64,000 bases of DNA from Methylotenera sp. (GTDB taxonomy: Bacteria > Pseudomonadota > Gammaproteobacteria > Burkholderiales > Methylophilaceae), in the NCBI GenBank assembly GCA_013141075.1, contig JABFRQ010000004.1, forward strand, positions 3,073 through 67,072, written 5' to 3'. Made by a program: the position numbers and the translations under genes. Below the pieces are notes generated by a model. That model worked only from the letters and a program-made list of their open reading frames with translations. It had not been told where the DNA came from and did no database searches. The stretch's first letter is position 1. Each line of letters begins with the position of its first letter. This document shows, piece by piece, positions 687 to 19,799 of this stretch.

Positions 687-1047
687 CGAGGTCTACTTAA
701 AAGGCTAACGTTTGACATAAGGGGCGCGCTTTAGCGCGTCCCGCTTAATGGATGGGTTAGGGCAAGCAACTTAACCGCCACCAAAGCCAAAACCACCACC
801 GAATTAAAAACTAAAATAGCGCGACCAAACAACAAGCCCCACCAACCGAAAACTACACTAAAACCACAAACAATAAACTACCACAAAACCAAGCTTAAAC
901 TAAACCCGAAAAACCTAAACCACCACCAAACCAAAAGCCCAAAAGCCCAAAACCAAAAGCCCAAAAGCACCTAAAACCCGATGCCCTGCGACCCAGCAAA
1001 CAAGCGGCTCGTGGCGGCATTGTTTTTAGCTAGCCCTAACGTTTGAA

Positions 1048-1407
1048 TTAAGGGGCGCCGTTAGGCGTCCCGCTTGAATGATGGGTTAGGCTAGGAAGCC
1101 AACCTTTTTGCTGCATTTGGTAAAGTAAAAAAGTAGATATTAGTGAAACGCACACGCCATAAATGATAAAGCCCAGCCCATGGGCTACTGGGTTTAAAAA
1201 ACTAAAAATTGTATTTAATTTTGGCAGTATCAAAGGCATAAGAACTAATACAAGATTTAGAACAAGGCAAAGAATTTCAAGAACACCAAGCTCTCTAGCC
1301 AATTCTGAGCGCGGATAACACTTGACAATGTATTTTGAAAATAATATCAAAGCACCAACAATGGCGGTGATTAAGAAAAGAATTAAAAATAATGCTAACC
1401 AACTCAA
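1048..1407 (-). CDS. Cassette: small integral membrane protein
   Basis: 119 aa, three hydrophobic segments; TTG start; stop lies inside attC 1034. Confidence 0.75.
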   Translation of the reverse strand: MSWLALFLILFLITAIVGALILFSKYIVKCYPRSELARELGVLEILCLVLNLVLVLMPLILPKLNTIFSFLNPVAHGLGFIIYGVCVSLISTFLLYQMQQKGWLPSLTHHSSGTPNGAP

Positions 1408-1775
1408 GTTAATGGCCTAACGTTTGACATAAGGGGCGCGCTTTAGCGCGTCCCACTTAATGGATGGGTTAGGGCAAGCAACTTTAAAGCCACCAAAGCC
1501 AAAACCACCACCGAATTAAAAACTAAAATAGCGCGACCAAACAACAAGCCCCGCCAACCGAAAACTAAACTAAAACCACAAACAATAAACCACCACAAAA
1601 CCAAACCTAAACTAAAACCACAGAACTTAAAACAACCCCAAACCAAAAGCCCAAAAGCACCTAAAACCTGATGCCCTGCGACCCAGCAAACAAGCGGCTC
1701 GTGGCGGCATTGTTTTTAGCTAACCCTAACGTTTGAATTAAGGGGCGCCGTTAGGCGTCCCGCTTGAATGAGGGG

Positions 1776-2108
1776 TTAGGTATTTGCATTAGTAATAACC
1801 TGACTTATAAATTTAAAAAATAAAGCAGAAAGTGGAGAGATAAATATTGCCACGCCATTTAATGCGACAAAAGCCTCCAACCAGTTAGTCTCGAAGTTTG
1901 CCGTGAGACTCCGATTTCGAAACATAGCTAACCCAAAAGAAAGTGCAATTATGTAGCAACCATATTGCATAAACTCATAACCTGGAAGAAACACTGTTTC
2001 ATTGGGTGTTGGATGCTCAGACATATTAAAGCTAATGGTTGAGAATACAAGAACAACAAATACTAGCCATGCGAGAACTTTGGGTGACCACTTGAACTTG
2101 CTAAGCAT
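1776..2108 (-). CDS. Cassette: small integral membrane protein
   Basis: 110 aa, about three TM segments; stop in R'' box of attC 1724. Confidence 0.8.
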   Translation of the reverse strand: MLSKFKWSPKVLAWLVFVVLVFSTISFNMSEHPTPNETVFLPGYEFMQYGCYIIALSFGLAMFRNRSLTANFETNWLEAFVALNGVAIFISPLSALFFKFISQVITNANT

Positions 2109-2788
2109 TTTTATACCTAACGTTTGACATAAGGGGCGCCGTCAGGCGTCCCACTTAATGGATGGGTTAGGGCAAGCAACTTAACAGCCACCAAAGCCAA
2201 AACCACCACCGAATTAAAAGCTAAAATAGCGCGACCAAACAACAAGCCCCACCAACCGAAAACTAAACGAAAACCACAAACAATAAACTACCACAAAACC
2301 AAACCTAAACTAAGCCCGGAAAAACTAAACTACCACAAAACCAAAAGCCCAAAAGCACCAAAACCCGATGCCCTGCGACCCAGCAAACAAGCGGCTCGTG
2401 GCGGCATTGCTTTTAGCTAGCCCTAACGTTTGACATAAGGGGCGCCGCAAGGCGTCCCACTTAATGGATGGGTTAGGGCAAGCAACTTTAAAACCACCAA
2501 AGCCAAAACCACCACCGAATTAAAAACTAAAATAGCACGACCAAACAACAAGCCCCGCCAACCGAAAACTAAACGAAAACCACAAACAATAAACTACCAC
2601 AAAACCAAACCGAAACTAAACCCGAAAAACCTAAACCACCACCAAACCAAAAGCCCCAAAGCACCTAAAACCCGATGCCCTGCGACCCAGCAAACAAGCG
2701 GCTCGTGGCGGCATTGTTTTTAGCTAGCCCTAACGTTTGAGTTAAGGGGCGCCGTTAGGCGTCCCGCTTGAATGATGGGTTAGGTAGT

Positions 2789-3100
2789 TTACCAAACAAT
2801 TTTTTTCTCCATACCCCAACCAGAACTACCTGCTTTGAAACCTTTGAACTCTAAACCTGTTTTGAATTGGAAAATAACTCTACCTACCCACTCGCCAGTT
2901 GTTTCAATTCGATAACCTAAAATAAGACCGCCAAAGAAAGATGGTTCGGCTTGTTTTTTATGAAAATAAATGTGACCACCGATAAGCTTTTCTGCAGTTT
3001 CGGGAGCTACAGCCCACCAACCACTTTCCCATTCGGAGTTGGCTTTATTAAGCATTTTCATGTTACCGAGATCTTCAATGAGGTGAATTGTGGGAGTCAT
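2789..3100 (-). CDS. Cassette: hypothetical cytoplasmic protein (Trp/Gly-rich)
   Basis: 103-aa ORF filling the space between attC 2728 and 3105. Confidence 0.85.
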   Translation of the reverse strand: MTPTIHLIEDLGNMKMLNKANSEWESGWWAVAPETAEKLIGGHIYFHKKQAEPSFFGGLILGYRIETTGEWVGRVIFQFKTGLEFKGFKAGSSGWGMEKKIVW

Positions 3101-3781
3101 AATTACCTAACGTTTGACATAAGGGGCGCCGTCAGGCGTCCCGCTTAATGGATGGGTTAGGGCAAGCAACTTAACAGCCACCAAAGCCAAAACCACCACC
3201 GAATTAAAAACCAACACAGCGCGACCAAATAACAAGCCCCACCAACCGAAAACTAAACTAAAACCACAAACAATAAACTACCACAAAACCAAGCTTAAAC
3301 TAAAACCACAGAACTTAAAACAACCCCAAACCAAAAGCCCAAAAGCACCAAAACCCGATGCCCTGCGACCCAGCAAACATGCGGCTCGTGGCGGCATTGT
3401 TTTTAACTAGCCCTAACGTTTGACATAAGGGGCGCGCTTTAGCGCGTCCCACTTAATGGATGGGTTAGGGCAAGCAACTTAACAGCCACCAAAGCCAAAA
3501 CCACCACCGAATTAAAAACTAAAATAGCGCGACCAAACAACAAGCCCCACCAACCGAAAACTACACTAAAACTACAAGCAATAAACTACCACAAAACCAA
3601 ACCTAAACTAAACCCGAAAAACCTAAACCACCACCAAACCAAAAGCCCAAAAGCACGAAAAATACCTGCCCTGCGACCCAGCAAACAAGCGGCTCGTGGC
3701 GGCATTGTTTTTAACTAGCCCTAACGTTTGACATAAGGGGCGCGCTTTAGCGCGTCCCGCTTGATGGATGGGTTGGGCATA

Positions 3782-4234
3782 TTATTTTGATGGGATGAAA
3801 ATTGGAACATATGTCTGACTTGAACCTGAGATTTTAACTCTAAACTCACTTAGTTTCTTTTCTGTTCCATCAGTAATATCGTTAAACGTACAGTCAAATG
3901 CAATACCTCTAGCGTTAGCTCGAATTTTGTATTTTTTCGATGCTTCAAAGTTGACCGTAATAAATTCGTTTACAGTTCTTCCTGAGTTGACAGCAGTAAA
4001 ACCTACTTTATGTTCTCCAGGCGGAACGCATACAGGGTTTGAGTTGGCTTGAAGGTCATCAACTTCCGCAATGCGCACGTGTGCTTCACCATCAGAGAAG
4101 AATTTAATTACGTTTGCTACATCGCCGTCAATACAAGCTGCATCAGTTTTAGCGTAGTTTTGATAGGTTGGCCCTGTTGCACAGCCAGACAATGTTAATA
4201 AAATTCCAACTAGACAAAGGTTAATTTTTTTCAT
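3782..4234 (-). CDS. Cassette: lipoprotein
   Basis: Signal peptide with lipobox LSGC; AAGAGAGAG RBS-like leader. Confidence 0.85.
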   Translation of the reverse strand: MKKINLCLVGILLTLSGCATGPTYQNYAKTDAACIDGDVANVIKFFSDGEAHVRIAEVDDLQANSNPVCVPPGEHKVGFTAVNSGRTVNEFITVNFEASKKYKIRANARGIAFDCTFNDITDGTEKKLSEFRVKISGSSQTYVPIFIPSK

Positions 4235-4314
4235 TTTGTTATCTCTCTCTTAAGGTTTATATGCCCAACGTTTGAATTAAGGGGCGCCGTTAGGCGTCCC
4301 GCTTGAATGATGGG

Positions 4315-4698
4315 TTAGCGTGCATATATTATGGCTAGTTGCTTTGCATTAGGTTTGGCTAAGGCAACAACTGTAAACCAAACATCAGGTTTTGCCAACG
4401 CAATTGAAACCTTACTAAACTTAACAAGCATTTCCGCCACACTACGGGAGCTGTAATTTACCCACATTTCGTTTTTGTTTAGGTCACACCGCCAACCTTC
4501 GTAGCTATGCACAAAATCACTGTTTTTTTTAAAATAAAAATCGCCTCCAATGACAGCGTAATTATTGGAGGCGAACCAATTAGAAAGAAGTTCTGCTTTG
4601 GAAAGAGGCCACAAAGTTTCAAATGGTAAATCAGGTTCAATTGGCTCGCCAAATTGCCTAACTTCATCAGGAAGTAAACTTAACCAATCTTCAGCCAT
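4315..4698 (-). CDS. Cassette: Imm40-like immunity protein (tentative)
   Basis: Motif AVIGGDFY...YEGWRCD resembles Imm40 family GGDvY...dnWyC. Confidence 0.55.
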   Translation of the reverse strand: MAEDWLSLLPDEVRQFGEPIEPDLPFETLWPLSKAELLSNWFASNNYAVIGGDFYFKKNSDFVHSYEGWRCDLNKNEMWVNYSSRSVAEMLVKFSKVSIALAKPDVWFTVVALAKPNAKQLAIIYAR

Positions 4699-5078
4699 TT
4701 ACTGCTCGCTAACGTTTGACATAAGGGGCGCCGTTAGGCGTCCCACTTAATGGATGGGTTAGGGCAAGCAACTTAACAGCCACCAAAGCCAAAACCACCA
4801 CCGAATTAAAAACTAAAATAGCGCGACCAAACAACAAGCCCCGCCAACCGAAAACTAAACTAAAACCACCAAACAAAAACATACCACAAAACCAAACCTA
4901 AACTAAGCCCGAAAAACTTAAACTACCACAAAACCAAAAGCCCAAAAGCACGAAAAAGCACCTGCCCTGCGACCCAATAAACAAGGGGCTCGTGGCGGCA
5001 TTGTTTTTAGCTAGCCCTAACGTTTGACATAAGGGGCGCGGTACGCGTCCCGCTTAATGGAGGGGTTAGCCATGATTT

Positions 5079-5477
5079 TTACTCTGTTAGCTTTGCTAGT
5101 TTTAGGACTTTTCGCATGGTGGATTTGTAAAGAAGCCAAGCAAGAAAAGCAGAAACAGTTAGAGATGGAAAAAATACAGCAAGCACGAGATAAGGCCAAA
5201 ATTGCAAAAATTGAGGAAGGATTGCGGGAGTGGTTGGTGATGCTAGAACTGTCGCAATTTGCAGACCAAAAGAAACTACAAGAAGCAACGCGCCAACTAC
5301 GTATTGTACTCGTTGAGCAGTTATTGAACTGGCCAAGTGTGGATTAAAGTCGTAGAACGGACTAGCTTGCAATGCGATTTGTTTTGCGGAATTGAAAGCG
5401 TTGCCAACGCAAAAAAATATGGCGGCTAAAAAGCCGACTGTTGCTGCAATTAGTGTGAGTGCAAGTTGCTCGTTCAT
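5079..5477 (-). CDS. Cassette: integral membrane protein
   Basis: 132 aa, three hydrophobic helices, between attC 5015 and 5484. Confidence 0.8.
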   Translation of the reverse strand: MNEQLALTLIAATVGFLAAIFFCVGNAFNSAKQIALQASPFYDFNPHLASSITAQRVQYVVGALLLVVSFGLQIATVLASPTTPAILPQFLQFWPYLVLAVFFPSLTVSAFLAWLLYKSTMRKVLKLAKLTE

Positions 5478-5497
5478 GATTATGGCTAACGTTTGAG

Positions 5498-5896
5498 TTA
5501 AGGGGCGCCGTTAGGCGTCCCGCTTGAATGATGGGTTAGGGCTGCCTCTTTATTGCTTTTTACTATTTCTATAAGTTGAAATGCTGGCATATCGAAACCA
5601 GTTAAATTTTTGCCGCTCCAATTAACACCAACATATATATTTTTTTCTTTTAGCTTTGGAGCTAACTCATACTCAAACTCATTCCATGGAACCTCAACTG
5701 GTTCAAAATTAGAGTACTCAGGGGTAGATTTAATGATTTTTTGAACTCTCGTTAATTTTGACCAAAAAGGCTGGATTTTTGTACCAATGCTTGAAACGAA
5801 AATAATATCTCCATTTTTACCTTTGATTGTCCATACTTTATTGTGACTAATCACATCAGCATAGAAATCATGTGCTTGTTTTCCTGAGTTGCTCAT
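5498..5896 (-). CDS. Cassette: DUF2750-family protein
   Basis: FY.DV....KVWTI...QPFWS...VGVNWSG..LTG.D pattern; stop inside attC. Confidence 0.75.
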   Translation of the reverse strand: MSNSGKQAHDFYADVISHNKVWTIKGKNGDIIFVSSIGTKIQPFWSKLTRVQKIIKSTPEYSNFEPVEVPWNEFEYELAPKLKEKNIYVGVNWSGKNLTGFDMPAFQLIEIVKSNKEAALTHHSSGTPNGAP

Positions 5897-6275
5897 AAAG
5901 CCCTAACGTTTGACATAAGGGGCGCCGTCAGGCGTCCCGCTTGATGGATGGGTTAGGGCAAGCAACTTAACAGCCACCAAAGCCAAAACCACCACCGAAT
6001 TAAAAGCTAAAATAGCGCGACCAAATAACAAGCCCCGCCAACCGAAAACTAAACTAAAACCACAAACAATAAACTACCACAAAACCAAACCTAAACTAAG
6101 CCCGAAAAACCTAAACCACCACCAAACCAAAAGCCCAAAAGCACGAAAAAGCACCTGCCCTGCGACCCAACAAACAAGCGGCTCGTGGCGGCATTGTTTT
6201 TAGCTAGCCCTAACGTTTGAATTAAGGGGCTGGCTTTAGCCAGTCCCGCTTGAATGATGGGTTATGCATAAAAAT

Positions 6276-6605
6276 TTAGTAGCCCATACTTGTAGATATA
6301 TTTGAATAGACTTTTTCACTAAAGGTAGATGCTTGTTTCAGAATCTCAGCTTCATTTTGATTGGCAATTTTTCCTGTTCTTGAAAACGACGCGCCTACCT
6401 CGTAAGCACTTTTCCAAAGCGCACTGCAATTAACGGTTCCGAGCAGACCACGCTTTTGTAAAATGTGTTGAGCAATGCCACTCATGAAGCGGTCTTGAGC
6501 ACCAGCGTAATATCCTCCAGCATTGCATATATTCAAATCTTCGTCCGCAGCAATAGCAGAAGTAGCTGACGCGAACAGAATTAGAGCTGTAATAAAAAGT
6601 CTCAT
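6276..6605 (-). CDS. Cassette: secreted hypothetical protein
   Basis: Cleavable signal peptide (ASATSAIA-A), two Cys, own AGAGGA RBS. Confidence 0.85.
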   Translation of the reverse strand: MRLFITALILFASATSAIAADEDLNICNAGGYYAGAQDRFMSGIAQHILQKRGLLGTVNCSALWKSAYEVGASFSRTGKIANQNEAEILKQASTFSEKVYSNISTSMGY

Positions 6606-6705
6606 AGTAATTATCCTCTAAACTGCATAACGTTTGAATTAAGGGGCTGGCTTTAGCCAGTCCCGCTTGAATGATGGGTTAGGGCAAGCTTTAGCTGGGC
6701 TGCCA

Positions 6706-6978
6706 TTATGGCTGTGTTTGTACAGCAATGATTGAAAACTCACTTTCACCGACCTCGATTGTTTTGCCCCATACATTTTTGATGTTTGGAATAGCCAAGA
6801 ACTCACCGCGGTATGCCTTGGATGTCAGCTCTTTGTGAAGTGCTGGAGTGAGCGCTGGCAAAGAACCTGCTGGGATGTTTGAACACCAAGAAGAAATGAA
6901 GCCTTTGAAATTGCTATGGCTCCCTTGGGTAACACGGCTGGCACCTTTGTACGAAACGATATATGTGTATAGCGGCAT
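6706..6978 (-). CDS. Cassette: hypothetical protein
   Basis: 90-aa ORF between attC 6625 and 6990. Confidence 0.8.
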   Translation of the reverse strand: MPLYTYIVSYKGASRVTQGSHSNFKGFISSWCSNIPAGSLPALTPALHKELTSKAYRGEFLAIPNIKNVWGKTIEVGESEFSIIAVQTQP

Positions 6979-7362
6979 TTAATGGAAAGCCCTAACGTTT
7001 GACATAAGGGGCGCCGTCAGGCGTCCCGCTTGATGGATGGGTTAGGGCAAGCAACTTAACAGCCACCAAAGCCAAAACCACCACCGAATTAAAAGCTAAA
7101 ATAGCGCGACCAAATAACAAGCCCCGCCAACCGAAAACTAAACTAAAACCACAAACAATAAACTACCACAAAACCAAACCTAAACTAAGCCCGAAAAACC
7201 TAAACCACCACCAAACCAAAAGCCCAAAAGCACGAAAAAGCACCTGCCCTGCGACCCAACAAACAAGCGGCTCGTGGCGGCATTGTTTTTAGCTAGCCCT
7301 AACGTTTGACATAAGGGGCGCCGCAAGGCGTCCCGCTTGATGGATGGGTTAGAAGCTGTTGA

Positions 7363-7869
7363 TTAGAGCGCATAAGTGACCTTATTCTCTGAAACAGTAA
7401 CTTTTTTAGTAGATTGTAATTGTTGAACAATAGTGGAAAGTTCAGAGTCTGGTAACCCGCTGGGGAAAAGTGAAACAATGGTGCTTTTCAATGTTTTTAG
7501 TGTTCTCGGTTTCGAGTTTCCGCGCTGCTTCAAGTTAGCAACTACAAGTGCAAGTTTATCGCTTTTTGGTTGTGCGATGACAGGTGCTTTGGATTGTGTA
7601 GCCACTTTAGCAGAGCCAACCCCATTGGGGCATTTGAATTGCCCCTTTTGGTTTAGAACGACCTGAAATTTTTCTTTGAGAGACATGCTGCCGAGTAATC
7701 GGTTGACTGTTTTGCAGCAGGCAACACAGTTTTCATCGCTGTTACTTCCACCATTAGCTGAGGCAAATAGATGTTCAACACTTGCTTCTGTTTTAGGTAA
7801 TGGTTGTTTGCAGAAAAAACACAAGCCACCTTGAACAAACATTAAGCGGTCGAGAGGTTTAGTTGGCAT
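7363..7869 (-). CDS. Cassette: HNH endonuclease with C-terminal helical (wHTH-like) domain
   Basis: CFFC...SVEHLFASANGGSNSDENCVACC..VN HNH signature, low-complexity linker, 60-aa C-terminal domain. Confidence 0.8.
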   Translation of the reverse strand: MPTKPLDRLMFVQGGLCFFCKQPLPKTEASVEHLFASANGGSNSDENCVACCKTVNRLLGSMSLKEKFQVVLNQKGQFKCPNGVGSAKVATQSKAPVIAQPKSDKLALVVANLKQRGNSKPRTLKTLKSTIVSLFPSGLPDSELSTIVQQLQSTKKVTVSENKVTYAL

Positions 7870-7875
7870 AAGCTT

Positions 7876-8166
7876 CTAACGTTTGACATAAGGGGCGCCG
7901 CAAGGCGTCCCGCTTAATGGATGGGTTAGGGCAAGCAACTTAACAGCCACCAAAGCCAAAACCACCACCGAATTAAAAACTAAAATAGCGCGACCAAACA
8001 ACAAGCCCCACCAACCGAAAACTAAACGAAAACCACAAACAATAAACCACCACAAAACCAAGCTTAAACTAAAACCACAGAACTTAAAACCACCCCAAAC
8101 CAAAAGCCAACAGCATGAAAAAGTACCTGCCCTGCGACCCAATAAACATGCGGCTCGTGGCGGCAT
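7876..8166 (-). CDS. Only fully open copy of the repeat-cassette ORF (96 aa, hydrophobic); may not be a real protein
   Basis: Same ATG as all other copies, but a 1-nt indel and TGG instead of TAG let it read through the attC to the GTTAG stop. Confidence 0.35.
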   Translation of the reverse strand: MPPRAACLLGRRAGTFSCCWLLVWGGFKFCGFSLSLVLWWFIVCGFRLVFGWWGLLFGRAILVFNSVVVLALVAVKLLALTHPLSGTPCGAPYVKR

Positions 8167-9705
8167 TGTTTTTAGCTAGCCCTAACGTTTGACATAAGGG
8201 GCGCGCTTTAGCGCGTCCCACTTAATGGATGGGTTAGGGCAAGCAACTTAACCGCCACCAAAGCCAAAACCACCACCGAATTAAAAACTAAAATAGCGCG
8301 ACCAAATAACAAGCCCCGCCAACCGAAAACTACACTAAAACCACCAACAATAAACTACCACAAAACCAAACCTAAACTAAACCCGAAAAACCTAAACCAC
8401 CACCAAACCAAAAGCCCAAAAGCACGAAAAAGCACCTGCCCTGCGACCCAATAAACATGCGGCTCGTGGCGGCATTGTTTTTAGCTAGCCCTAACGTTTG
8501 ACATAAGGGGCGCCGAAGGCGTCCCGCTTGATGGATGGGTTAGGGCAAGCAACTTAACCGCCACCAAAGCCAAAACCACCACCGAATTAAAAACTAAAAT
8601 AGCGTGACCAAACAACAAGCCCCACCAACCGAAAACTAAACGAAAACCACAAACAATAAACTACCACAAAACCAAACCTAAACTAAACCCGAAAAACCTA
8701 AACCACCACCAAACCAAAAGCCCAAAAGCACCTAAAACCCGATGCCCTGCGACCCAATAAACATGCGGCTTGCGGAGGCATGGTTTTACGAAGCCCTAAC
8801 GTTTGACATAAGGGGCGCCGTTAGGCGTCCCACTTAATGGATGGGTTAGGGCAAGCAACTTAACAGCCACCAAAGCCAAAACCACCACCGAATTAAAAAC
8901 TAAAATAGCGCGACCAAACAACAAGCCCCGCCAACCGAAAACTAAACTAAAACCACAAGCAATAAACTACCACAAAACCAAACCTAAACTAAACCCGAAA
9001 AACCTAAACTACCACCAAACCAAACGCTAATAGCACGAAAAAACAACTGCCCTGCGACCCAGCAAACAAGCGGCTCGTGGCGGCATTGTTTTAGCTAGCC
9101 CTAACGTTTGACATAAGGGGCGCCGCAAGGCGTCCCACTTAATGGATGGGTTAGGGCAAGCAACTTAACAGCCACCAAAACCTAAACCACCACCGAATTA
9201 AAAACTAAAATAGCGCGACCAAACAACAAGCCCCACCAACCGAAAACTAAACTAAAACCACAAACAAAAAACTACCACAAAACCAAACCTAAACTAAGCC
9301 CGAAAAACCTAAACCACCACCAAACCAAAAGCCCAAAAGCACCTAAAACCCAATGCCCTGCGACCCAGCAAACATGCGGCTCGTGGCGGCATTGTTTTTA
9401 GCTAGCCCTAACGTTTGACATAAGGGGCGCCGCAAGGCGTCCCACTTAATGGATGGGTTAGGGCAAGCAACTTAACAGCCACCAAAACCTAAACCACCAC
9501 CGAATTAAAAACCAAAATAGCGCGACCAAACAACAAGCCCCACCAACCAAAAACTAAACTAAAACCACCAAACAATAAACCACCACAAAACCAAACCTAA
9601 ACTAAACCCGAAAAACCTAAACCACCACCAAACCAAAAGCCTAAAAGCACCTAAAACCCGATGCCCTGCGACCCAGCAAACATGCGGCTCGTGGCGGCAT
9701 TGATT

Positions 9706-9999
9706 TTAGCTAGCCCTAACGTAATAATTAACCTGCACGCCGTGGCGTGTCAGGGTTGAATGATGGGTTAGGCGATTAGACTGCTTGCGAATGAGCCGCC
9801 ACACACACCAGACAAACAGGCCAAAGAAAATAACGGATAGAGCCAAACTTGGATAAGCCCAAGCAGCCGCACGTTCCGCAGACCATGATCCGTTTGCATT
9901 CATCCATGTGTAGAAGATGAACGAGCCAAACGCATAAAATGACGCAATGGGTGCTACAACGACCCCGACCCAATACAAAATTCGTGTGCGCTTAGTCAT
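9706..9999 (-). CDS. Cassette: small membrane protein
   Basis: Two TM segments; reads through atypical attC 9714; preceded by lone GTTAGGT at 10007-10013. Confidence 0.75.
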   Translation of the reverse strand: MTKRTRILYWVGVVVAPIASFYAFGSFIFYTWMNANGSWSAERAAAWAYPSLALSVIFFGLFVWCVWRLIRKQSNRLTHHSTLTRHGVQVNYYVRAS

Positions 10000-10025
10000 G
10001 AGATATACCTAACGATAGACCACTT

Positions 10026-10322
10026 TTACATCGCGTCATAATCTTTTATGCCTAGCAAAAAGGTAAGTATCATAAAATAGTTGATAAGCAATATACCTAA
10101 AACTACACCAATTACAACACCTGCAGGTATGGCTAGCGCGAATCCATGTTTTTTGGAAAACGTTGAGCCCCACACTACTCCCAATGCAACTACACCAAGA
10201 ACGCTGTAACCAAGTACAACAGGGCCGATTGAACCGTCGATTAAAAGCAAGTAGCTCAAGCTCAGCAAAACTGGTCCAAGAAAAATGCATACCGTCCAGA
10301 ACAATGCGATTCGTATAGTCAT
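10026..10322 (-). CDS. Cassette: small membrane protein (no attC of its own)
   Basis: 98 aa hydrophobic; followed by only 12 bp then a bare core site. Confidence 0.75.
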   Translation of the reverse strand: MTIRIALFWTVCIFLGPVLLSLSYLLLIDGSIGPVVLGYSVLGVVALGVVWGSTFSKKHGFALAIPAGVVIGVVLGILLINYFMILTFLLGIKDYDAM

Positions 10323-10389
10323 AACAATGGCCTAACGTTTGAATTAAGGGGCTGGCTTTAGCCAGTCCCGCTTGAATGATGGGTTAGGG

Positions 10390-10686
10390 TTACTTTGCAT
10401 AAAACCCATTAGGCCCAAAAAGTTCGTAAAGTGATTTAGCAAGTACTTGTGCTGTTTGCTGACTTAGACCAGAAAAAATATTTTCTCCAGTTATATATGG
10501 ATTAAGAGCGAATTCAGCGATATGCCGCTCGTGAGGGCTTAGATTTGAAAGTGATGTGTCAAATGCTAATCTTGCTCCGTCTTCCGTTACTTGCCATCGG
10601 TTAGAGCCAAGCATTGCTTCTAAAACTGGTTTGCGTAAGTGGAACGAGTCTTTCCAATCAATATCATGTTGGTATTTGTGAGACAT
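10390..10686 (-). CDS. Cassette: hypothetical protein
   Basis: Likely start MSHKY with AGGAGG RBS; the longer ORF call starts inside attC 10710. Confidence 0.75.
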   Translation of the reverse strand: MSHKYQHDIDWKDSFHLRKPVLEAMLGSNRWQVTEDGARLAFDTSLSNLSPHERHIAEFALNPYITGENIFSGLSQQTAQVLAKSLYELFGPNGFYAK

Positions 10687-11099
10687 AATTACCCTCCTTG
10701 GTTTGTAAACCCTAACGTTTGACATAAGGGGCGCGCTTTAGCGCGTCCCACTTAATGGATGGGTTAGGGCAAGCAACTTAACAGCCACCAAAACCTAAAC
10801 CACCACCGAATTAAAAACTAAAATAGCGTGACCAAACAATAAGCCCCACCAACCGAAAACTAAACGAAAACCACAAACAATAAACTACCACAAAACCAAG
10901 CTTAAACTAAAACCACAGAACTTAAAACAACCCCAAACCAAAAGCCCAAAAGCACCAAAACCCGATGCCCTGCGACCCAGCAAACATGCGGCTCGTGGCG
11001 GCATTGTTTTTAGCTAGCCCTAACGCGCAGCTAAGGGGCGCGCCGAAGGCGCGTCCCAGCGACCAAAGGGAGCGAACTTGAGCGTAGGGTTAGAGAACA

Positions 11100-11438
11100 T
11101 TAACATGGCCCAAACTCCAATGTTCGGAGAGACTCCTTAAAATACTGCGTAACACTATCAGGCGTCGCTGGGTAAAACGGTGCAGACGCGGCCTGAAACA
11201 GCACATACGTGATTATGAGCGCGAACGGGAAAATGACTCGTCGTTGCCATGAGCGAAGTATCGTTCCAGGGGCAAGAATGGCGATCAAAGTAACGGGCAC
11301 GACGATAGCCACAAAAAGCTCGTGATGCCACGAATAGCCGCCACACGAAAAGAGCCCGAAGAAAATGCCACCTATGGCAGCAACCAGCAATGCCGTGACC
11401 GTTGAGATGTTGCCGATGCGTCCAAATAACTTTCTCAT
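11100..11438 (-). CDS. Cassette: membrane protein with foreign-type 78-bp attC
   Basis: Three TM segments, visibly more GC-rich than neighbours, attC 11018-11095. Confidence 0.8.
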   Translation of the reverse strand: MRKLFGRIGNISTVTALLVAAIGGIFFGLFSCGGYSWHHELFVAIVVPVTLIAILAPGTILRSWQRRVIFPFALIITYVLFQAASAPFYPATPDSVTQYFKESLRTLEFGPC

Positions 11439-11441
11439 GGG

Positions 11442-11771
11442 CTCTAACGTTTGAATTAAGGGGCTGGCTTTAGCCAGTCCCGCTTGAATGATGGGTTAGG
11501 GAAAGCCGCCAAAAAGGCAACCAACACACCGCACCCAGCAAAACTAAAAAATAACGTAAAACCGCCCAACTTGCAAACCCCACAAAACCAAACGGAAACT
11601 AGGCACTAAAAACCTAAAAACTGCACCACCGAAAAGCCAACTAAAACCTAAAAACAAACCAAGCAAAACTAACCCAAAAATGCTAACTAAAACCGCCGAG
11701 CGAAAAACATTGCCCTGCGAGCCAACATCTGCGCGGCTTCCAGAGGTGCTGTGATAAAGATAAACCCTAAC
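11442..11771 (-). repeat. Divergent relative of the gene-poor repeat cassette
   Basis: Same length class and A/C skew on + strand; shares the TGCCCTGCGA block; lacks the conserved ATG; has the other attC subtype. Confidence 0.7.
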
Positions 11772-11778
11772 GTTTGAA

Positions 11779-12198
11779 TTAAGGGGCGCCTTTAGGCGTC
11801 CCGCTTGAATGATGGGTTAGCCCAGCCTGACTACATAATAATTTTTTTCTCTCAAGATACTTATCAGCAACTACGGTATCTTTTTTTATACCCAACTCAT
11901 CTCCCACACCGAATCGATAAAAGAGTTCTAATACATGAATGGCACTACAGCTATTTAACTCATCTGCCTTTTTCAAACAGTCTTGAGCTTCCAATTTCTC
12001 ACTCTCAGACATTAGTCTGGTTTTTGCAGTTGGAACACCATCTTTGATTCCAGTATTTTCAGACCAAAGGTTCCAGAAGCGAGAATACATAGCCTCCCCA
12101 TTTGATGTAACTGAACATTGAGTAGTATCACCAGACCTAGTGCATGAAGTAACTAGTGCTAAGCAAAATAAGATAGAGGTGAATCTGTTCAGGAACAT
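11779..12198 (-). CDS. Cassette: lipoprotein with a Sel1-like repeat
   Basis: Lipobox LVTSC; LELFYRFGVGDELGIKKDTVVADKY resembles Sel1 repeat; stop inside attC. Confidence 0.7.
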   Translation of the reverse strand: MFLNRFTSILFCLALVTSCTRSGDTTQCSVTSNGEAMYSRFWNLWSENTGIKDGVPTAKTRLMSESEKLEAQDCLKKADELNSCSAIHVLELFYRFGVGDELGIKKDTVVADKYLERKKLLCSQAGLTHHSSGTPKGAP

Positions 12199-12263
12199 GA
12201 TATGGCTAACGTTTGACATAAGGGGCGCGCTTTAGCGCGTCCCGCTTGATGGATGGGTTAGGC

Positions 12264-12671
12264 TTACTCATGTGGACGATATGCTGCTTGAGGATTTATG
12301 AAATATGCGCCCAGAAAACCAAAACCAGCAGACCCAAAAAATACGATTGGCATTAATGCCTGATGAGGCAAACCAACAAGTAAATGGTAGCCAAGGCCGA
12401 CTGCTCCCGTAGTGATTCCATAAGCTACCATCATAAAAACTAGATTGACATACCTTCCAATTTTTTCTTGGAAAGATGAGTTGTTGGTAATAAATAACCT
12501 AGATATTAAGGCTAGTATTGGGGGACCAATCAAGCCAAAGACCATTACTTGGATTAATGCTTGATGAGGGAAACTAGAAACTATTGGTTTATTCAGAATA
12601 GCAAATGGTTGATATGCACCAAAAATAACTCCCAAAATTATTCCAGTCCAATCGCTTCGATATAGTTTCAT
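12264..12671 (-). CDS. Cassette: four-TM membrane protein
   Basis: 135 aa with four hydrophobic segments. Confidence 0.85.
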   Translation of the reverse strand: MKLYRSDWTGIILGVIFGAYQPFAILNKPIVSSFPHQALIQVMVFGLIGPPILALISRLFITNNSSFQEKIGRYVNLVFMMVAYGITTGAVGLGYHLLVGLPHQALMPIVFFGSAGFGFLGAYFINPQAAYRPHE

Positions 12672-14234
12672 AAAAGCCTAACGTTTGACATAAGGGGCGC
12701 GCTTTAGCGCGTCCCGCTTAATGGATGGGTTAGGGCAAGCAACTTAACAGCCACCAAAGCCAAAACCACCACCGAATTAAAAACTAAAATAGCACGACCA
12801 AACAACAAGCCCCGCCAACCGAAAACTACACTAAAACCACAAACAATAAACTACCACAAAACCAAACCTAAACTAAGGCCGAAAAACCTAAACCACCACA
12901 AAACCAAAAGCCCAAAAGCACCTAAAACCCGATGCCCTGCGACCCAACAAACAAGCGGCTCGTGGCGGCATTGTTTTAGCTAGCCCTAACGTTTGACATA
13001 AGGGGCGCCGTTAGGCGTCCCACTTAATGGATGGGTTAGGGCAAGCAACTTAACAGCCACCAAAGCCAAAACCACCACCGAATTAAAAACTAAAATAGCG
13101 CGACCAAACAACAAGCCCCGCCAACCGAAAACTAAACTAAAACCACAAGCAATAAACTACCACAAAACCAAACCTAAACTAAACCCGAAAAACCTAAACT
13201 ACCACCAAACCAAACGCTAATAGCACGAAAAAACAACTGCCCTGCGACCCAGCAAACAAGCGGCTCGTGGCGGCATTGTTTTAGCTAGCCCTAACGTTTG
13301 ACATAAGGGGCGCCGAAGGCGTCCCGCTTGATGGATGGGTTAGGGCAAGCAACTTAACCGCCACCAAAGCCAAAACCACCACCGAATTAAAAACTAAAAT
13401 AGCGTGACCAAACAACAAGCCCCACCAACCGAAAACTAAACGAAAACCACAAACAATAAACTACCACAAAACCAAACCTAAACTAAACCCGAAAAACCTA
13501 AACCACCACCAAACCAAAAGCCCAAAAGCACCTAAAACCCGATGCCCTGCGACCCAATAAACATGCGGCTTGCGGAGGCATGGTTTTACGAAGCCCTAAC
13601 GTTTGACATAAGGGGCGCCGCAAGGCGTCCCACTTAATGGATGGGTTAGGGCAAGCAACTTAACAGCCACCAAAGCCAAAACCACCACCGAATTAAAAAC
13701 TAAAATAGCGCGACCAAACAACAAGCCCCGCCAACCGAAAACTAAACTAAAACCACAAACAAAAAACTACCACAAAACCAAGCTTAAACTAAACCCACAG
13801 AACTTAAAACAACCACCAAACCAAAAGCCTAAAAGCACCTAAAACCTGATGCCCTGCGACCCAGCAAACATGCGGCTCGTGGAGGCATTGTTTTTAGATA
13901 GCCCTAACGTTTGACATAAGGGGCGCCGAAGGCGTCCCACTTAATGGATGGGTTAGGGCAAGCAACTTAACAGCCACCAAAGCCAAAACCACCACCGAAT
14001 TAAAAACTAAAATAGCGCGACCAAATAACAAGCCCCACCAACCGAAAACTAAACTAAAACTACAAACAAAAAACTACCACAAAACCAAACCTAAACTAAA
14101 CCCGAAAAACGTAAACCACCACCAAACCAAAAGCCCAAAAGCACGAAAAAGCACCTGCCCTGCGACCCAGCAAACAAGCGGCTCGTGGCGGCATTGTTTT
14201 TAGTTAGCCCTAACGTTTTAATTAAGGGGCGCCG

Positions 14235-14489
14235 TTAGGCGTCCCGCTTGAATGATGGGTTAGGCACATTTTTTTCATGCTTAGCACATTGCTGACACAG
14301 CCCAATATCATTGGTACTTAAAGGCTCGAAATACCTTCTCAGATTTTGACCATTAAACTTTGGGTCGTCATTTACTGGCATTTCAGGTTTGTAGCCTTTT
14401 CTTCCGCAAGCTATACATTGGTTTATCCACTTGAGAAGATTTGGATGCATCCTTAGATAACCATCACCGTCAGAAAATAGATTACTCAT
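14235..14489 (-). CDS. Cassette: small putative Zn-binding protein
   Basis: CIAC...CQQC pairs; stop inside attC 14208. Confidence 0.75.
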   Translation of the reverse strand: MSNLFSDGDGYLRMHPNLLKWINQCIACGRKGYKPEMPVNDDPKFNGQNLRRYFEPLSTNDIGLCQQCAKHEKNVPNPSFKRDA

Positions 14490-14571
14490 TGTGTGCCTAA
14501 CGTAAAAGTGAGGGGCTGCGCGCTTTTGCGCAGTCCCTCTCGACTGCCGGGTTGGGCATCAGGCGCTGCAT

Positions 14572-15132
14572 TTACGCAACCTGCAATTGGAAGACATGCC
14601 GCCGAATACCTGCGCGCCCCACTTCTCGAAAACCGGCAGCCTCGAATGTAGGAACGAAGCCCATGAACCGATAACTCGGAGACTCTGGATCGACTGGATA
14701 AGCTTCCACAATTGAGGCGCCTCTGGACTTGGCAAAGTCGATGGCTGCGGCAATGATTCGTTGTGTAATGCCTTGGCCGCGCAACCTGCGAGCAACGAAG
14801 AAGCAAGCGATTGACCAAACGCCTTCGTCAGAGCTGCCATCGTCAACGAGCCGACGGTAAGTTGATCGTGGTGCCACGGAGCACCACGCGACGGGCTCTT
14901 CATCAAGATAGCCAAGAAGCCCCACTGTCGTTCCAGCGGCGATACGTTTGGCAATTGCGGCTTTGCGGCTCGCGCCGTCAGTGTGCTTTGCTTCCTCTGG
15001 CATTGCACGCCAGACCATGCACCAACAAGCCTTTGGGCCGCCTCGACATTCGAAAAGCCTCTCGAAGTCAGGCCATGTGTCGGCAGTGACTTCGCGAAAC
15101 ACGATGCGATCAATTTCTGCTGCTTCAGTCAT
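14572..15132 (-). CDS. Cassette: GNAT-family N-acetyltransferase
   Basis: VGLLGY....VAWCSVAPR, WSIACFFV....RGQGI....I.AA, VEAYP motifs; GC-rich; atypical attC 14495. Confidence 0.9.
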   Translation of the reverse strand: MTEAAEIDRIVFREVTADTWPDFERLFECRGGPKACWCMVWRAMPEEAKHTDGASRKAAIAKRIAAGTTVGLLGYLDEEPVAWCSVAPRSTYRRLVDDGSSDEGVWSIACFFVARRLRGQGITQRIIAAAIDFAKSRGASIVEAYPVDPESPSYRFMGFVPTFEAAGFREVGRAGIRRHVFQLQVA

Positions 15133-15472
15133 GTGATGCCCAACGTTTGACATAAGGGGCGCCGTCAGGCGTCCCGCTTAATGGATGGGTTAGGGCAAGC
15201 AACTTAACAGCCACTAAAGCCAAAACCACCACCGAATTAAAAACTAAAATAGCGCGACCCAACAACAAGCCCCACCAACCGAAAACTAAACTAAAACCAC
15301 AAACAATAAACTACCACAAAACCAAACCTAAACTAAGCCCAACAAAACTTAAAACACCACCAAACCAAAAGCCAAACAGCACCTAAAACCCGATGCCCTG
15401 CGACCCAACAAACATGCGGCTCGTGGCGGCATTGTTTTTAGCTAGCCCTAACGTTTGAATTAAGGGGCGCCG

Positions 15473-15889
15473 TTAGGCGTCCCGCTTGAATGATGGGTTA
15501 GGCGCGGACTTAGCTAAACGACCAATAACCCCAAGATGAGTAAAACTAAACCCCGCTGAATATTTAAGCCCATAGCCCAGCGCACGGTCAAAGCCAATGT
15601 GAGCGCACCAAATGACACCCGCACATGAAAGGACAGGAGCAAGAAGAAGAGAACCCGCAACAAGACAAGCAATAGCACCAATATAAGAGTGTGCTGCATT
15701 ATAAGATAAAGCACCAACACGCGACCCTGCGAGATAACCTAGAAACGAAAGGTCGGGGGTGAGAAAAAATAACGCGAACGTACCCCAGCTAAAACCTAAC
15801 TTGGGGTAAAAAAGCGACGCGGCTATTAGCACACACAAACCCTCAAGCCTTAAAACCCACCGCACTGCACCTGTTGTTTCACCTGACAT
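15473..15889 (-). CDS. Cassette: DUF4260-family membrane protein
   Basis: LRLEG...FLTPDLSFLGYL.G...GA..YN.AH...AHIGFDRALGYGLKY..GF..THLG. Confidence 0.85.
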   Translation of the reverse strand: MSGETTGAVRWVLRLEGLCVLIAASLFYPKLGFSWGTFALFFLTPDLSFLGYLAGSRVGALSYNAAHSYIGAIACLVAGSLLLAPVLSCAGVIWCAHIGFDRALGYGLKYSAGFSFTHLGVIGRLAKSAPNPSFKRDA

Positions 15890-16283
15890 GTAATTCCTTT
15901 GTTTTGTAGCGCCTAACGTTTGACATAAGGGGCGCCGCAAGGCGTCCCACTTAATGGATGGGTTAGGGCAAGCAACTTAACAGCCACCAAAACCAAAACC
16001 ACCACCGAATTAAAAACTAAAATAGCGCGACCAAAAAACAAGCCCCGCCAACCGAAAACTACACTAAAACCACAAACAAAAAACCACCACAAAACCAAGC
16101 CTAAACTAAAACCACAGAACTTAAAACAACCCCAAACCAAAAGCCCAAAAGCACCTAAAACCCGATGCCCTGCGACCCAACAAACAAGCGGCTCGTGGCG
16201 GCATTGTTTTTAACTAGCCCTAACGTTTGAATTAAGGGGCGCCGTTAGGCGTCCCGCTTGAATGATAGGTTATGCGTTAACAT

Positions 16284-16571
16284 TTAATATTTACAACCAA
16301 ATTCTGCCCATCCCCAGCCACCTTCACCATAGCCACCTTGTATATAGTTAATTCCTTCGGTGCAACTCAAGGGCATTAGCTTGGTTCTTATTAACATAAG
16401 TTCGAAAGCTCTTTCTTTTGATGAATCTAAAGCTTCAACTTCATGCCATTTGAAGTAGCTAACATATGGCGCTCGGCTGCCATCTTTTACAGAAGCACAG
16501 AATTCGTTTTTGCTTTGGATTGAACAGCATCCAGTTAATAGCAAAAGTACAACTAAATTATAAATACGCAT
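16284..16571 (-). CDS. Cassette: small Cys-rich lipoprotein
   Basis: Lipobox LTGC; ATG inside the GTTATGC core site. Confidence 0.8.
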   Translation of the reverse strand: MRIYNLVVLLLLTGCCSIQSKNEFCASVKDGSRAPYVSYFKWHEVEALDSSKERAFELMLIRTKLMPLSCTEGINYIQGGYGEGGWGWAEFGCKY

Positions 16572-16649
16572 AACGTGGAGCTAAGGGGCGCGCCGAAGGC
16601 GCGTCCCAGCGACCGGAGGGAGCGAACTTGAGCGTATGGTTAGAGCGCA

Positions 16650-17057
16650 TTACGCGAACCACCCCACCGCATTGTCGTCCCACTCATGGCCGTGAATAGC
16701 CCAAGCACTATTCGTTGCGGGAGGCGGAAACCCAGTACGGCAATAGCCACGCTTTGATTGGAAATCGAAGACCGCATGCGGATGCCCGTTGATCAGAAGG
16801 GCTACCTTCTGAGAATCGACAGACCAGCCGATCTTTACGACTGAAGGTTTATCGCGGTCCGTGACATTAACTACATTGTAGATTTGTAGCGCGTCCTGAA
16901 TAGGATTGCCTTCGCATGTGACATCGAGTGCATAGAAGTATCCGGTGTCTTGATCATCTTCGAACACGGCCACAAAGGGGCCTTCCAGTGCGGCACCCTC
17001 GACTGTGGTTGGACGCCCAACTATGAACTCTTGCTCGGCGGTGATATGGATAGGCAT
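16650..17057 (-). CDS. Cassette: DUF2251-family protein with foreign-type 78-bp attC
   Basis: VFEDD..TGYFYA...IQDALQIYNV...LLING.PHAVFDF..KRGYCRTGFPP. Confidence 0.85.
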   Translation of the reverse strand: MPIHITAEQEFIVGRPTTVEGAALEGPFVAVFEDDQDTGYFYALDVTCEGNPIQDALQIYNVVNVTDRDKPSVVKIGWSVDSQKVALLINGHPHAVFDFQSKRGYCRTGFPPPATNSAWAIHGHEWDDNAVGWFA

Positions 17058-17125
17058 AGAAATGGGCCTTGCGCTCTAACGTTTGAATTAAGGGGCGCCG
17101 TTAGGCGTCCCGCTTGAATGATGGG

Positions 17126-17434
17126 TTAGGCATTATTAAACACCTTAAGAACCCGACCAAGGCCAATATCTTTACCCTCCCAAACTTTAAAAACAGTACC
17201 TACAGGAAAGTGAGGGGTAGCTGCCTCTGGGACAAGGAATTGTACGTCAAAATTTTGAGCCTCACTAGGACTGAAAACATGCTCGGAAGGTATGCAAAAA
17301 CGCACTGAAAAACTTTCTTCACCTACGGTAAAAACTCCTCGATACTCGCCTTGGAGAATTGGTGTTTTTCTACCTCCCAACTCTTCAGGGGTCAGAGTAA
17401 TTTCAACTGATATTTGTGGTGAGAATTGCTTCAC
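17126..17434 (-). CDS. Cassette: stand-alone EF-Tu domain III-like protein
   Basis: LTPEELGGRKTPILQGEYR and VWEGKDIGLGRVLKV align by eye to EF-Tu LSKDEGGRHTPFFKGYR and IREGGRTVGAGVVAKV; GTG start inferred. Confidence 0.65.
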   Translation of the reverse strand: MKQFSPQISVEITLTPEELGGRKTPILQGEYRGVFTVGEESFSVRFCIPSEHVFSPSEAQNFDVQFLVPEAATPHFPVGTVFKVWEGKDIGLGRVLKVFNNA

Positions 17435-17805
17435 AAGCAAAATGCCTAACGTTTGACATAAGGGGCGCGCTTTAGCGCGTCCCACTTAATGGATGGGTTA
17501 GGGCAAGCAACTTAACAGCCACCAAAGCCAAAACCACCACCGAATTAAAAACCAAAATAGCGCGACCAAACAACAAGCCCCACCAACCAAAAACTAAACT
17601 AAAACCACAAACAATAAACTACCACAAAACCAAACCTAAACTAAGCCCAACAAAACTTAAACCACCACCAAACCAAAAGCCAAAAAGCACCTAAAACCCG
17701 ATGCCCTGCGACCCAGCAAACAAGCGGCTCGTGGCGGCATTGTTTTTAGCTAGGCCTAACGTTTGACATAAGGGGCGCCGCAAGGCGTCCCGCTTGATGG
17801 ATGGG

Positions 17806-19678: not shown

Positions 19679-19799
19679 TTAATAACGTTGTTTAAGTTTG
19701 TCAAATGATTGTTTGTGTTTTTATTAAAACACCCTGTTGGTAAATTTAAATATAGTGTAAAATCAACTAATTATAAATTATTAGTTAATCCTAAATGAT

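Follow-up and report, generated by a model that had tools for sequence, protein, structure and literature searches.

The 64,000-nucleotide stretch of Methylotenera sp. DNA analysed here (hereafter the window) carries in its left 19.7 kb the cassette array of a chromosomal integron, in which one short cassette of typically ~307 bp is present in 24 copies. We read this repeat cassette as a non-coding cassette of a sedentary Methylotenera integron that has used the integron recombination machinery, as a passenger or parasite, to multiply, and we give this reading a probability of roughly 0.55. A preliminary description of the same DNA, made from the sequence alone, had pointed to the cassette and had offered either a selfish minimal element or a functional module of the array as its explanation. 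The selfish side of this pair is now the better supported one, by exact cassette duplicates, a swapped two-cassette block and the predicted fold of the attC sites, while for the functional side no sigma-70-like promoter or terminator was found in six copies, and no conserved RNA structure.

The integron is a sedentary chromosomal one, having an integron-type integrase, more than 20 cassettes, near-uniform attC sites and a fixed position in relatives. The product of intI (Table 1) contains the Phage_integrase and SAM_4 domains as per the domain search, and aligns over its full length with VchIntIA (2A3V; E 1e-84), with the integron-specific insertion and the HxxR...Y motifs included. It is also 100% identical to an integrase on a 195-kb Methylotenera sp. 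contig of a metagenome-assembled genome (MAG). Among the related loci, which carry the numbers L003 to L021 in this work, the gene order intI-MazE/Fic-ilvD was found in L010, L014-L016 and L020, and L017 and L021 retain intI-MazE/Fic. Every cassette and every cassette open reading frame (ORF) lies on the minus strand, intI is divergent from them, and the array continues past the left edge of the window. There are 45 complete cassettes between 709 and 17759; with a block bearing toxin-antitoxin genes at attI and the cut cassette at the left edge the count comes to ~47, which agrees with the 47 attC-bounded cassettes of the preliminary description.

The attC sites of the array show great uniformity. 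There are two main types, A (…CCATCCATTAAGYGGGAC…CCCCTTATGTCAAACG) and B (…CCATCATTCAAGCGGGAC…CCCCTTAATTCAAACG), besides a rare 76-nt type. The DNA folds of types A and B range from -9.4 to -11.3 kcal/mol (z -2.6 to -3.1) and the hairpins are canonical, with R and L stems and a centre that is unpaired. Their bulged bases sit in the L'' arm of the plus strand of the window, so that the plus strand is the recombining bottom strand. All 24 repeat cassettes carry a type-A attC of 55-58 nt. The repeat units (24 of 24) begin with TTAGG(G/C) and finish with …CAAACG, R'' being (G)CCCTAAC, R' being GTTAGGG and the crossover lying at G/TT. The units are thus bounded as integron gene cassettes are, by attC sites whose bottom strands fold, and they stand in a co-oriented array beside attI and intI. 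The rare type (…CGCTCAAGTTCGCTCCC…GGGACGCGCCTTCGGCGCGCCCC…) occupies 11019-11094 and 16569-16644 in the window and 12835-12910 in L010, and is common to both species.

Repeat search of the window gave one family, with its 24 members between 709 and 17759 on the minus strand, at the places where they had been reported before. When cut at the crossover, each copy is exactly one attC-to-attC cassette; 23 of them are 305-310 nt long and the remaining one is 331 nt. The 24 copies have a mean pairwise identity of 91.6-92.8%, the value varying with the treatment of gaps; three pairs are identical, which leaves 21 distinct variants within one array. No paralogs of the remaining 21 cassettes were found in the array. 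The tandem runs of six and five copies described earlier were recovered at 7880-9719 and 12682-14213, and there are pairs at 2121-2733 and 3111-3724. The earlier statement that length, both ends and attC are kept also holds, the ends being about as conserved as the attC region. A diverged 25th member (Table 1) has in common with the 24 copies only the GCCGC…TCGCAGGGCA motif at the 5' end and the G/T-rich composition and architecture, the sequence similarity being weak; its existence suggests that the architecture may predate the amplified subfamily.

The repeat cassette is the sole multiplied family in the array, it no longer needs a reading frame, and its units of duplication are exact cassettes that have moved both singly and as a two-cassette circle. 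For the identical pair 5907-6213 and 6996-7302, the run of identity (5897-6220 = 6986-7309) covers the cassette plus the conserved core bases, and the flanks are unrelated. Over the three identical pairs these runs measure 324-342 nt and end 7-10 nt from the G/TT crossover, inside the conserved core. Two adjacent copies, X (8495-8799) and Y (8800-9104), recur with 100% identity at 13295-13599 and 12990-13294, respectively, so that the order of the block is swapped; such an arrangement is the signature that a two-cassette circle would leave on integrating via its other attC. Identical copies lie 1.1-4.8 kb apart among unrelated neighbours, and the three pairs point to what may be recent copying. 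Closeness in the array does not go with likeness in sequence (92.6% identity for adjacent and 92.8% for distant copies, permutation p=0.63), and the tandem runs are therefore not the products of recent slippage. Also, the order of repeat and non-repeat cassettes fits random mixing (runs test p=0.74; p=0.34 for a run of at least six, with 24 of 45 cassettes), so that the runs need no special mechanism. Tandem amplification was rejected on these two grounds. All four gametes were seen in 76% of the informative site pairs, which means that the copies exchange segments, by homologous recombination or conversion. As far as these sequence patterns go, the amplification fits integrase-mediated excision and re-insertion with replicative resolution, for which there is an established model (PMC3458562), and not local slippage. 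It may be noted that integrase-independent slippage has been reported for small cassettes between similar attC sites (PMC5371416).

As we picture it, IntI would act on two attC sites in the folded form of their bottom strands and excise the repeat cassette, and the junction would be resolved by replication, one daughter chromosome keeping the original cassette. The excised circle would then re-enter at attI or at another attC, and the outcome would be copy-and-paste because the original stays behind on one of the daughter chromosomes. IntI would be the copying agent, and the family would win through its shortness and its well-folding attC.

The folding of attC was expressed as the probability that its bottom strand adopts the R stem and L stem, using nearest-neighbour DNA energy parameters. 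By this measure no other attC sites of the array have a predicted folding probability as high as those of the family. In the native context the family median is 0.21, whereas the other cassettes stand at ~0.004 (p=2e-4 to 8e-4), and in the excised circle the predicted values are 0.30 and 0.17 (p=7e-4). Repeat-repeat junctions reach 0.30, the value of an isolated attC site. The two ends of the cassette pair with each other and lengthen the R-box stem (GCCCTAAC/GTTAGGGC plus GCT/AGC), and the controls place the gain in the first ~6 nt beyond attC. The idea that the A/C-rich bottom strand keeps the attC hairpin free of rivals was rejected, as a shuffled or random genomic body with the 6 nt kept still gives ~0.30. 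The family would then, as modelled, have a good, self-completing attC and be short; short cassettes and attC sites of high fold probability can excise more often in some contexts (PMC5371416).

One unit consists of a conserved ~57-nt 5' end with a short ATG-led ORF, a ~190-nt body, a conserved 3' end and attC. It opens with TTAGGGCTAGCTAAAAACA, followed by ATG CCG CCA CGA GCC GCN TGT TTR YTG GGT CGC AGG GCA (MPPRAACLLGRRA); the middle is variable, and the 3' half is well conserved and finishes …TTTTTAATTCGGTGGTGGTTTTGGCTTTGGTGGCTGTTAAGTTGCTTGC before attC. From ~nt 20 to attC the top strand has 7% A, 11% C, 35% G and 47% T, and the sense-strand G+T of the family is put at ~78-82%, or at 76-82% (0.76-0.82) in the comparison with other gene-less cassettes. 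By complement, the bottom strand of the body has ~47% A, 35% C and 11% G, and no structure is predicted in it over ~175 nt. The body shows periods of 6 and 8.5 nt besides a 42-nt repeat inside it. A ~10.5-nt periodicity is lacking in the unit, and phased A-tracts or DNA curvature were rejected for this reason. The octamer GNTGGTGG, which is Chi-like (E. coli, H. influenzae), occurs 51 times at 700-17760, in every case on the cassette top strand, and 8 times in the 43 kb outside. Its reading as a Chi-like site was set aside, the count probably following from composition; we know of no Chi in the family of bacteria to which Methylotenera belongs.

Taken as a whole, the family is in our judgement non-coding, although a short leader may still be translated. 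The preliminary description had reported no conserved long ORF, and the frame analysis bears this out. Relative to the longest hydrophobic frame, the conserved ATG is in phase 0, 1 and 2 in 8, 10 and 6 copies, respectively, and only one of the 24 copies (7880-8185; ORF 7876-8166, 96 aa) is open from the conserved ATG to attC. In-frame stops or phase shifts occur in 22 of 24 copies. The same number have no ORF of at least 70 aa (Blanco criterion), the exceptions being 7880-8185 (96 aa, ATG) and 15917-16223 (75 aa, TTG); the 150-bp ORF limit (Boucher criterion) is exceeded by TTG- or GTG-led frames in several copies. No period-3 signal was found in the repeat cassette, and the share of synonymous changes among the segregating sites matches the random expectation in all frames, except in codons 1-13. 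A word-indexed search of 5.8 billion clustered proteins matched only five ORFs, all of them from copies of the repeat cassette, and an exhaustive HMMER search of 1.84 billion representatives gave no family, its one spurious match being a translated tandem repeat. A real protein family behind the 96-aa ORF was rejected, as both searches found none beyond the family's own ORFs. A protein on the bottom strand was likewise rejected: a ~95-codon stop-free frame is present in ~8 copies without ATG, GTG or TTG and is broken by indels in the others. This antisense frame (…KAKTTTELKTKIARPNNKPRQPKTK…SGSWRHCF-stop) runs on the plus strand of the window over ~95 codons, e.g. in the copies at 2427-2733 and 5907-6213.

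Outside the window, the sample comprised 10 full copies, and the related arrays were covered over 3.6-10 kb each. Family copies are present in L003, L004, L006, L007 and L010-L013 at 88-98% identity. The first four are short contigs of two 'TF' MAGs, in which the family sits among different cassettes, L011-L013 are JGI contigs and L010 is an ENA Methylotenera genome. At least two copies stand on one short contig in the independent assemblies L003, L004, L006, L011 and L012, and those of L003 and L004 include adjacent copies. In L007, two ORF cassettes are 100% identical to window 6214-6995, in the other order. It may be noted that L003, L004 and L006 (JBEBKD01…) and L007 (JBEBJQ01…) had been binned into 'Lysobacteraceae' and 'Methylococcales' MAGs; because L007 carries the two identical cassettes, we take these four contigs as probably mis-binned Methylotenera integron fragments. 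For L010, the ilvD four-fold sites are 39% identical to those of the window (near saturation), and its copy of the cassette is 93% identical to a window copy and 90% identical on average, within the spread inside the window array. This conservation would mean either that the sequence is constrained or that cassettes are exchanged across the genus, the latter being possible because the attC types are common to the whole genus.

In integrons with 84-90% identical integrases (L014-L019, L021), the family was not found in the 3.6-10 kb of array covered. A scan of 185,579 genomes and the JGI metagenomes with an invariant 20-mer gave only chance matches beyond a few Methylotenera-type contigs, it being understood that an exact 20-mer misses diverged relatives. 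A wider distribution of the family was rejected on these scans and on the arrays of the relatives. Whether the cassette is restricted to integrons and amplified elsewhere had been raised in the preliminary description. Apart from chance matches, the 20-mer was found in Methylotenera-type contigs only, and the relatives L010, L017, L018 and L021 have one copy or none in the 3.6-10 kb of array covered. In the Methylotenera MAGs L014 and L015 (9381-10001) the integrase is intact (87% identical) and only ~620 bp separate intI from an AI-2E transporter gene, so that the array is either nearly absent or collapsed in assembly. An HNH-endonuclease cassette (window 7303-7879, minus strand) has 82.6% nucleotide identity to the first cassette of Methylotenera sp. 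1P/1 (L017 9033-9546), and is the only coding cassette found in common with another species.

Several observations weigh against the reading of the cassette as a mere passenger. The diversity (pi) is highest in the middle (0.134); the 5' 57 nt have 0.066, the attC region 0.063 and the 3' 95 nt of the body 0.054. Among the transversions, 33 preserve the G/T alphabet and 9 break it; on dividing these by type, T>G (18) exceeds T>A (3), G>T (15) exceeds G>C (6), and T>G is even above the transition T>C (10). In codons 1-13 all four common polymorphisms are synonymous, which is suggestive, the sample being small. A purely selfish element needs only its attC, and the kept ends and composition point to a function beyond mobility. 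Also, the folding advantage is a thermodynamic prediction, comes from ~6 nt by attC and is less than two-fold in the circle form. Regarding functional constraint itself, the conservation across species could be due to recent horizontal exchange. The four-fold sites of 27 cassette ORFs have a G+T of 0.50, and an array-wide mutational bias therefore does not explain the G/T substitution pattern. Array-wide deamination of an often single-stranded top strand as the cause of the G/T richness is unsupported on the same figure. On these observations, the repeat cassette does not look like a sequence in free decay.

These observations lend themselves to the view that the array keeps the cassette in many copies as a working module, for the benefit of the host, a view that we consider unlikely and yet the best placed of the rivals. 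The module could be an internal promoter, such as those demonstrated for Vibrio and Treponema gene-less cassettes (PMC11014356, PMC6557892). It could also be an anti-polarity spacer, in which a short translated leader and a C-poor, hairpin-free RNA let transcripts from the cassette promoter Pc continue, or a site resembling a Rho-utilization (rut) site on the other strand, A/C-rich, G-poor and unstructured, which halts antisense transcription by Rho. Selection, not drift, appears to act on the composition and both ends, the ATG and the first 13 codons are kept with synonymous common variants, and the bottom-strand body has the rut-like composition and lack of predicted structure given above. 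A 93% identical copy persists in a species whose ilvD four-fold sites have an identity of 39%. Untranslated stretches inside a cassette reduce downstream expression (Carvalho et al., PMC11511950), a cost that a spacer of this kind would address. On the transcript side, a consensus scan of six copies gave no sigma-70-type promoter and no intrinsic terminator; this is weak evidence because most Vibrio gene-less cassettes carry sense promoters that software could not predict (Blanco et al., PMC11014356). The Rfam search gave no match in the array. The sense RNA of the repeat cassette folds no better than its shuffles (z -0.53) and in the alifold run only 1 of 62 predicted pairs covaries. A structured small RNA (sRNA) or riboswitch was rejected on these results, and conserved RNA structure thus gives the module no support. 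Moreover, the copies are randomly placed, neither regularly spaced nor beside particular genes, and the relatives whose integrase is similar (L010, L017, L018, L021) have at most one copy in the 3.6-10 kb of array covered. Rho inhibition was without effect on Vibrio gene-less cassettes (PMC11014356), and 24 copies far exceed what an insulator or promoter needs.

A variant of the passenger reading takes the G/T strand and the ends as adaptations of the parasite, the ends extending the R stem so that the cassette folds its own attC optimally, and the body making it 'transparent' to the expression of the array. Our favoured guess, which is speculation, is that the G/T-only composition and the kept ends might make an untranslated insert less costly to a polycistronic array. 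The parts that would do so are the short translated leader, a C-poor sense RNA without Rho loading, and the lack of hairpins and terminators. The antisense RNA of the cassette, A/C-rich, G-poor and unstructured, would resemble a Rho loading site. A cassette made transparent by its leader and its C-poor, hairpin-free RNA could therefore fill half of an array at little cost. We regard this variant as rather improbable; if true, it would be the first mechanistic account of the proliferation of non-coding cassettes.

Less probable still is that the cassette encodes a small membrane peptide, either of ~27 aa (MPPRAACLLGRRA plus a hydrophobic tail) or in the 96-aa three-helix form of the copy at 7880-8185. 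The G/T richness would then simply reflect the codons for Phe, Leu, Val, Gly and Trp, and most copies would be decayed or variant alleles. The 34 copies (24 in the window and 10 external) can be aligned end to end, and the ATG is invariant among them. The ATG frame is exactly 27 codons long in 13 of 24 window copies and 17 of 34 overall; its length ranges over 13-95 codons and no stop falls before codon 13, the stretch in which the common polymorphisms are synonymous. An intact ORF from ATG to attC is present in L011 (P0001, 106 aa) as well as in the window, and changes between G and T exchange hydrophobic residues for one another. These points are outweighed by the scrambled phase and the 22 of 24 interrupted copies, by the want of a period-3 signal or synonymous excess after codon 13, and by the HMMER result. 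It should also be considered that any G/T-rich sequence gives a hydrophobic translation in three frames. There is no Shine-Dalgarno sequence at the conserved ATG, the nearest AGGG being 14 nt upstream. Considered as a small membrane peptide or type I toxin, the cassette offers a frame kept over 13 codons only, no Shine-Dalgarno sequence and, in the scan of six copies, no promoter on either strand. Least probable of all is that the copies were made without the integrase, by unequal homologous recombination or slippage between attC sites, or are an assembly artefact: the attC sites are >90% alike, slippage is on record for small cassettes with such sites (PMC5371416), the copies exchange segments and the window comes from a MAG contig, but slippage and unequal crossing-over make adjacent near-identical blocks whereas neighbours are as diverged as non-neighbours, identical copies (one cassette pair swapped) stand far apart among unrelated neighbours, other cassettes with equally similar attC sites are not multiplied, and several independent assemblies have the matching interspersed and adjacent arrangement.

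The preliminary description had ranked the cassette as the best candidate in this DNA for an undescribed system. This is not supported, as Vibrio families filling up to half an array were described in 2006 (PMC1382264). Boucher et al. (2006, PMC1382264) found that non-coding cassettes make up 6-49% of Vibrio arrays and tend to be paralogous, one family of V. vulnificus numbering 45 copies in CMCP6 and 34 in YJ016. These families have >80% identity between species, are absent outside the genus and show no codon-like variation, and either a selfish element or a role that benefits the integron was offered for them. The repeat cassette resembles them in being attC-bounded, in having no genuine protein match beyond its own ORFs, in its many copies per array, in an identity of >80% between species, in its restriction to a genus and in its non-codon-like substitutions. 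The likeness to the V. vulnificus family is one of description. The repeat cassette differs from the Vibrio families in its host, a betaproteobacterial methylotroph, in that one family makes up about half of the cassettes, in the shorter unit (~250 nt body) and in the direct evidence of single- and two-cassette movement. The family is therefore of the already known kind of paralogous non-coding cassettes, in a host lineage that is new. Its distinguishing points are that a single family dominates about half of the array, that the unit is short, that movement at the level of cassettes has left direct traces and that the strand composition is extreme. As to the last, the sense-strand G+T is 0.76-0.82 here and 0.55-0.62 in nine Vibrio gene-less cassettes (Blanco et al. 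2024, Table S1: C1-C4, V1, V2, P1, P2 and F3), all nine of which have more T than A; their G/T bias has the same direction as in the repeat cassette and is much milder.

With the promoter-bearing gene-less cassettes (Blanco et al. 2024, PMC11014356; Tansirichaiya et al. 2019, PMC6557892) the repeat cassette shares the lack of a gene of at least 70 aa (in 22 of its 24 copies), the sense orientation and the residence in a large chromosomal array. Those cassettes are 450-650 bp long, mostly single-copy and of measured promoter activity, whereas the scan gave no consensus promoter for the repeat cassette. Also, duplicated cassettes were set aside in these studies, and amplification is a feature of the repeat cassette, not of theirs. 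The replicative duplication by IntI (Loot et al. 2012, PMC3458562; Souque et al. 2021, PMC8024014) is similar in that the donor copy stays and re-insertion duplicates the cassette. Those systems concern resistance cassettes under antibiotic selection in mobile integrons, whereas the outcome here is that a gene-less cassette accumulates at steady state in a sedentary integron. A likeness may also be drawn to miniature inverted-repeat transposable elements (MITEs) and to repetitive extragenic palindromes and their mosaic elements (REP/BIME) with RAYT, as short non-coding elements with structured single-stranded hairpin ends that are multiplied by an enzyme encoded elsewhere. Unlike these, the repeat cassette is confined to the integron platform and to site-specific attC x attI/attC recombination, and the analogy is one of logic, not of membership.

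The coordinates of the repeat cassettes and of the integron platform are collected in Table 1. The attI-proximal block (18222-19690, minus strand) has two toxin-antitoxin pairs with no canonical attC separating them. Among the related loci, the pairing of intI with MazE/Fic is retained in L010, L014-L017, L020 and L021, the exceptions being L018 and L019. At a distance from the integron, the only Rfam match of the window is the anti-hemB sRNA (RF02837) at 53495-53582 on the plus strand, with 60.4 bits against a gathering score of 49.5.

Table 1. Positions of the repeat cassettes and of the integron platform in the window.
Feature	Position	Strand	Basis or remark
Repeat cassette copy 1 (331 nt, 22-nt internal duplication)	709..1039	-	repeat search and crossover cut
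Repeat cassette copy 2	1421..1729	-	repeat search and crossover cut
Repeat cassette copy 3	2121..2426	-	repeat search and crossover cut
Repeat cassette copy 4	2427..2733	-	repeat search and crossover cut
Repeat cassette copy 5	3111..3416	-	repeat search and crossover cut
Repeat cassette copy 6	3417..3724	-	repeat search and crossover cut
Repeat cassette copy 7	4713..5020	-	repeat search and crossover cut
Repeat cassette copy 8, identical to copy 9	5907..6213	-	identity-run comparison
Repeat cassette copy 9, identical to copy 8	6996..7302	-	identity-run comparison
Repeat cassette copy 10, sole copy with ATG-to-attC ORF (96 aa, 7876-8166)	7880..8185	-	ORF analysis
Repeat cassette copy 11	8186..8494	-	repeat search and crossover cut
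Repeat cassette copy 12 (X), identical to copy 19	8495..8799	-	identity comparison
Repeat cassette copy 13 (Y), identical to copy 18	8800..9104	-	identity comparison
Repeat cassette copy 14	9105..9411	-	repeat search and crossover cut
Repeat cassette copy 15	9412..9719	-	repeat search and crossover cut
Repeat cassette copy 16	10716..11023	-	repeat search and crossover cut
Diverged 25th member, gene-less, G+T 0.76, type-B attC	11448..11770	-	composition scan; nhmmer E 6e-4
Repeat cassette copy 17	12682..12989	-	repeat search and crossover cut
Repeat cassette copy 18 (Y)	12990..13294	-	identity comparison
Repeat cassette copy 19 (X)	13295..13599	-	identity comparison; X-Y order swapped relative to 8495-9104
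Repeat cassette copy 20	13600..13907	-	repeat search and crossover cut
Repeat cassette copy 21	13908..14213	-	repeat search and crossover cut
Repeat cassette copy 22	15144..15451	-	repeat search and crossover cut
Repeat cassette copy 23	15917..16223	-	repeat search and crossover cut
Repeat cassette copy 24 (nearest attI)	17450..17759	-	repeat search and crossover cut
BrnA-like antitoxin	18386-18607	-	attI-proximal block; paired with DUF497/BrnT-like ORF
DUF497/BrnT-like ORF	18646-18924	-	attI-proximal block; paired with BrnA-like antitoxin
PIN toxin	18978-19382	-	attI-proximal block; paired with Phd-family antitoxin
Phd-family antitoxin	19386-19655	-	attI-proximal block; paired with PIN toxin
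attI crossover region (…AAACAAC/GTTATTAAAC…), array start	19680..19700, ~19690	-	sequence inspection
intI, integron integrase (335 aa), apparently intact	19800..20807	+	TIGR02249 476.7 bits (cutoff 265)
Doc/Fic toxin and antidote	20876-21489	+	immediately 3' of intI

Returning to the passenger reading, the family would most likely spread within Methylotenera integrons, and probably also between them, using IntI in trans. Such repeats break short-read assemblies of integron arrays and seem to misplace array fragments into wrong MAGs; metagenome cassette surveys therefore under-count or misplace such arrays. The purpose of non-coding cassettes and the existence of integron parasites are questions that have stood since 2006, and for these the family provides a compact test system, with a unit of ~307 bp, 21 natural variants, an intact-looking integrase and a composition constraint that can be broken by design.

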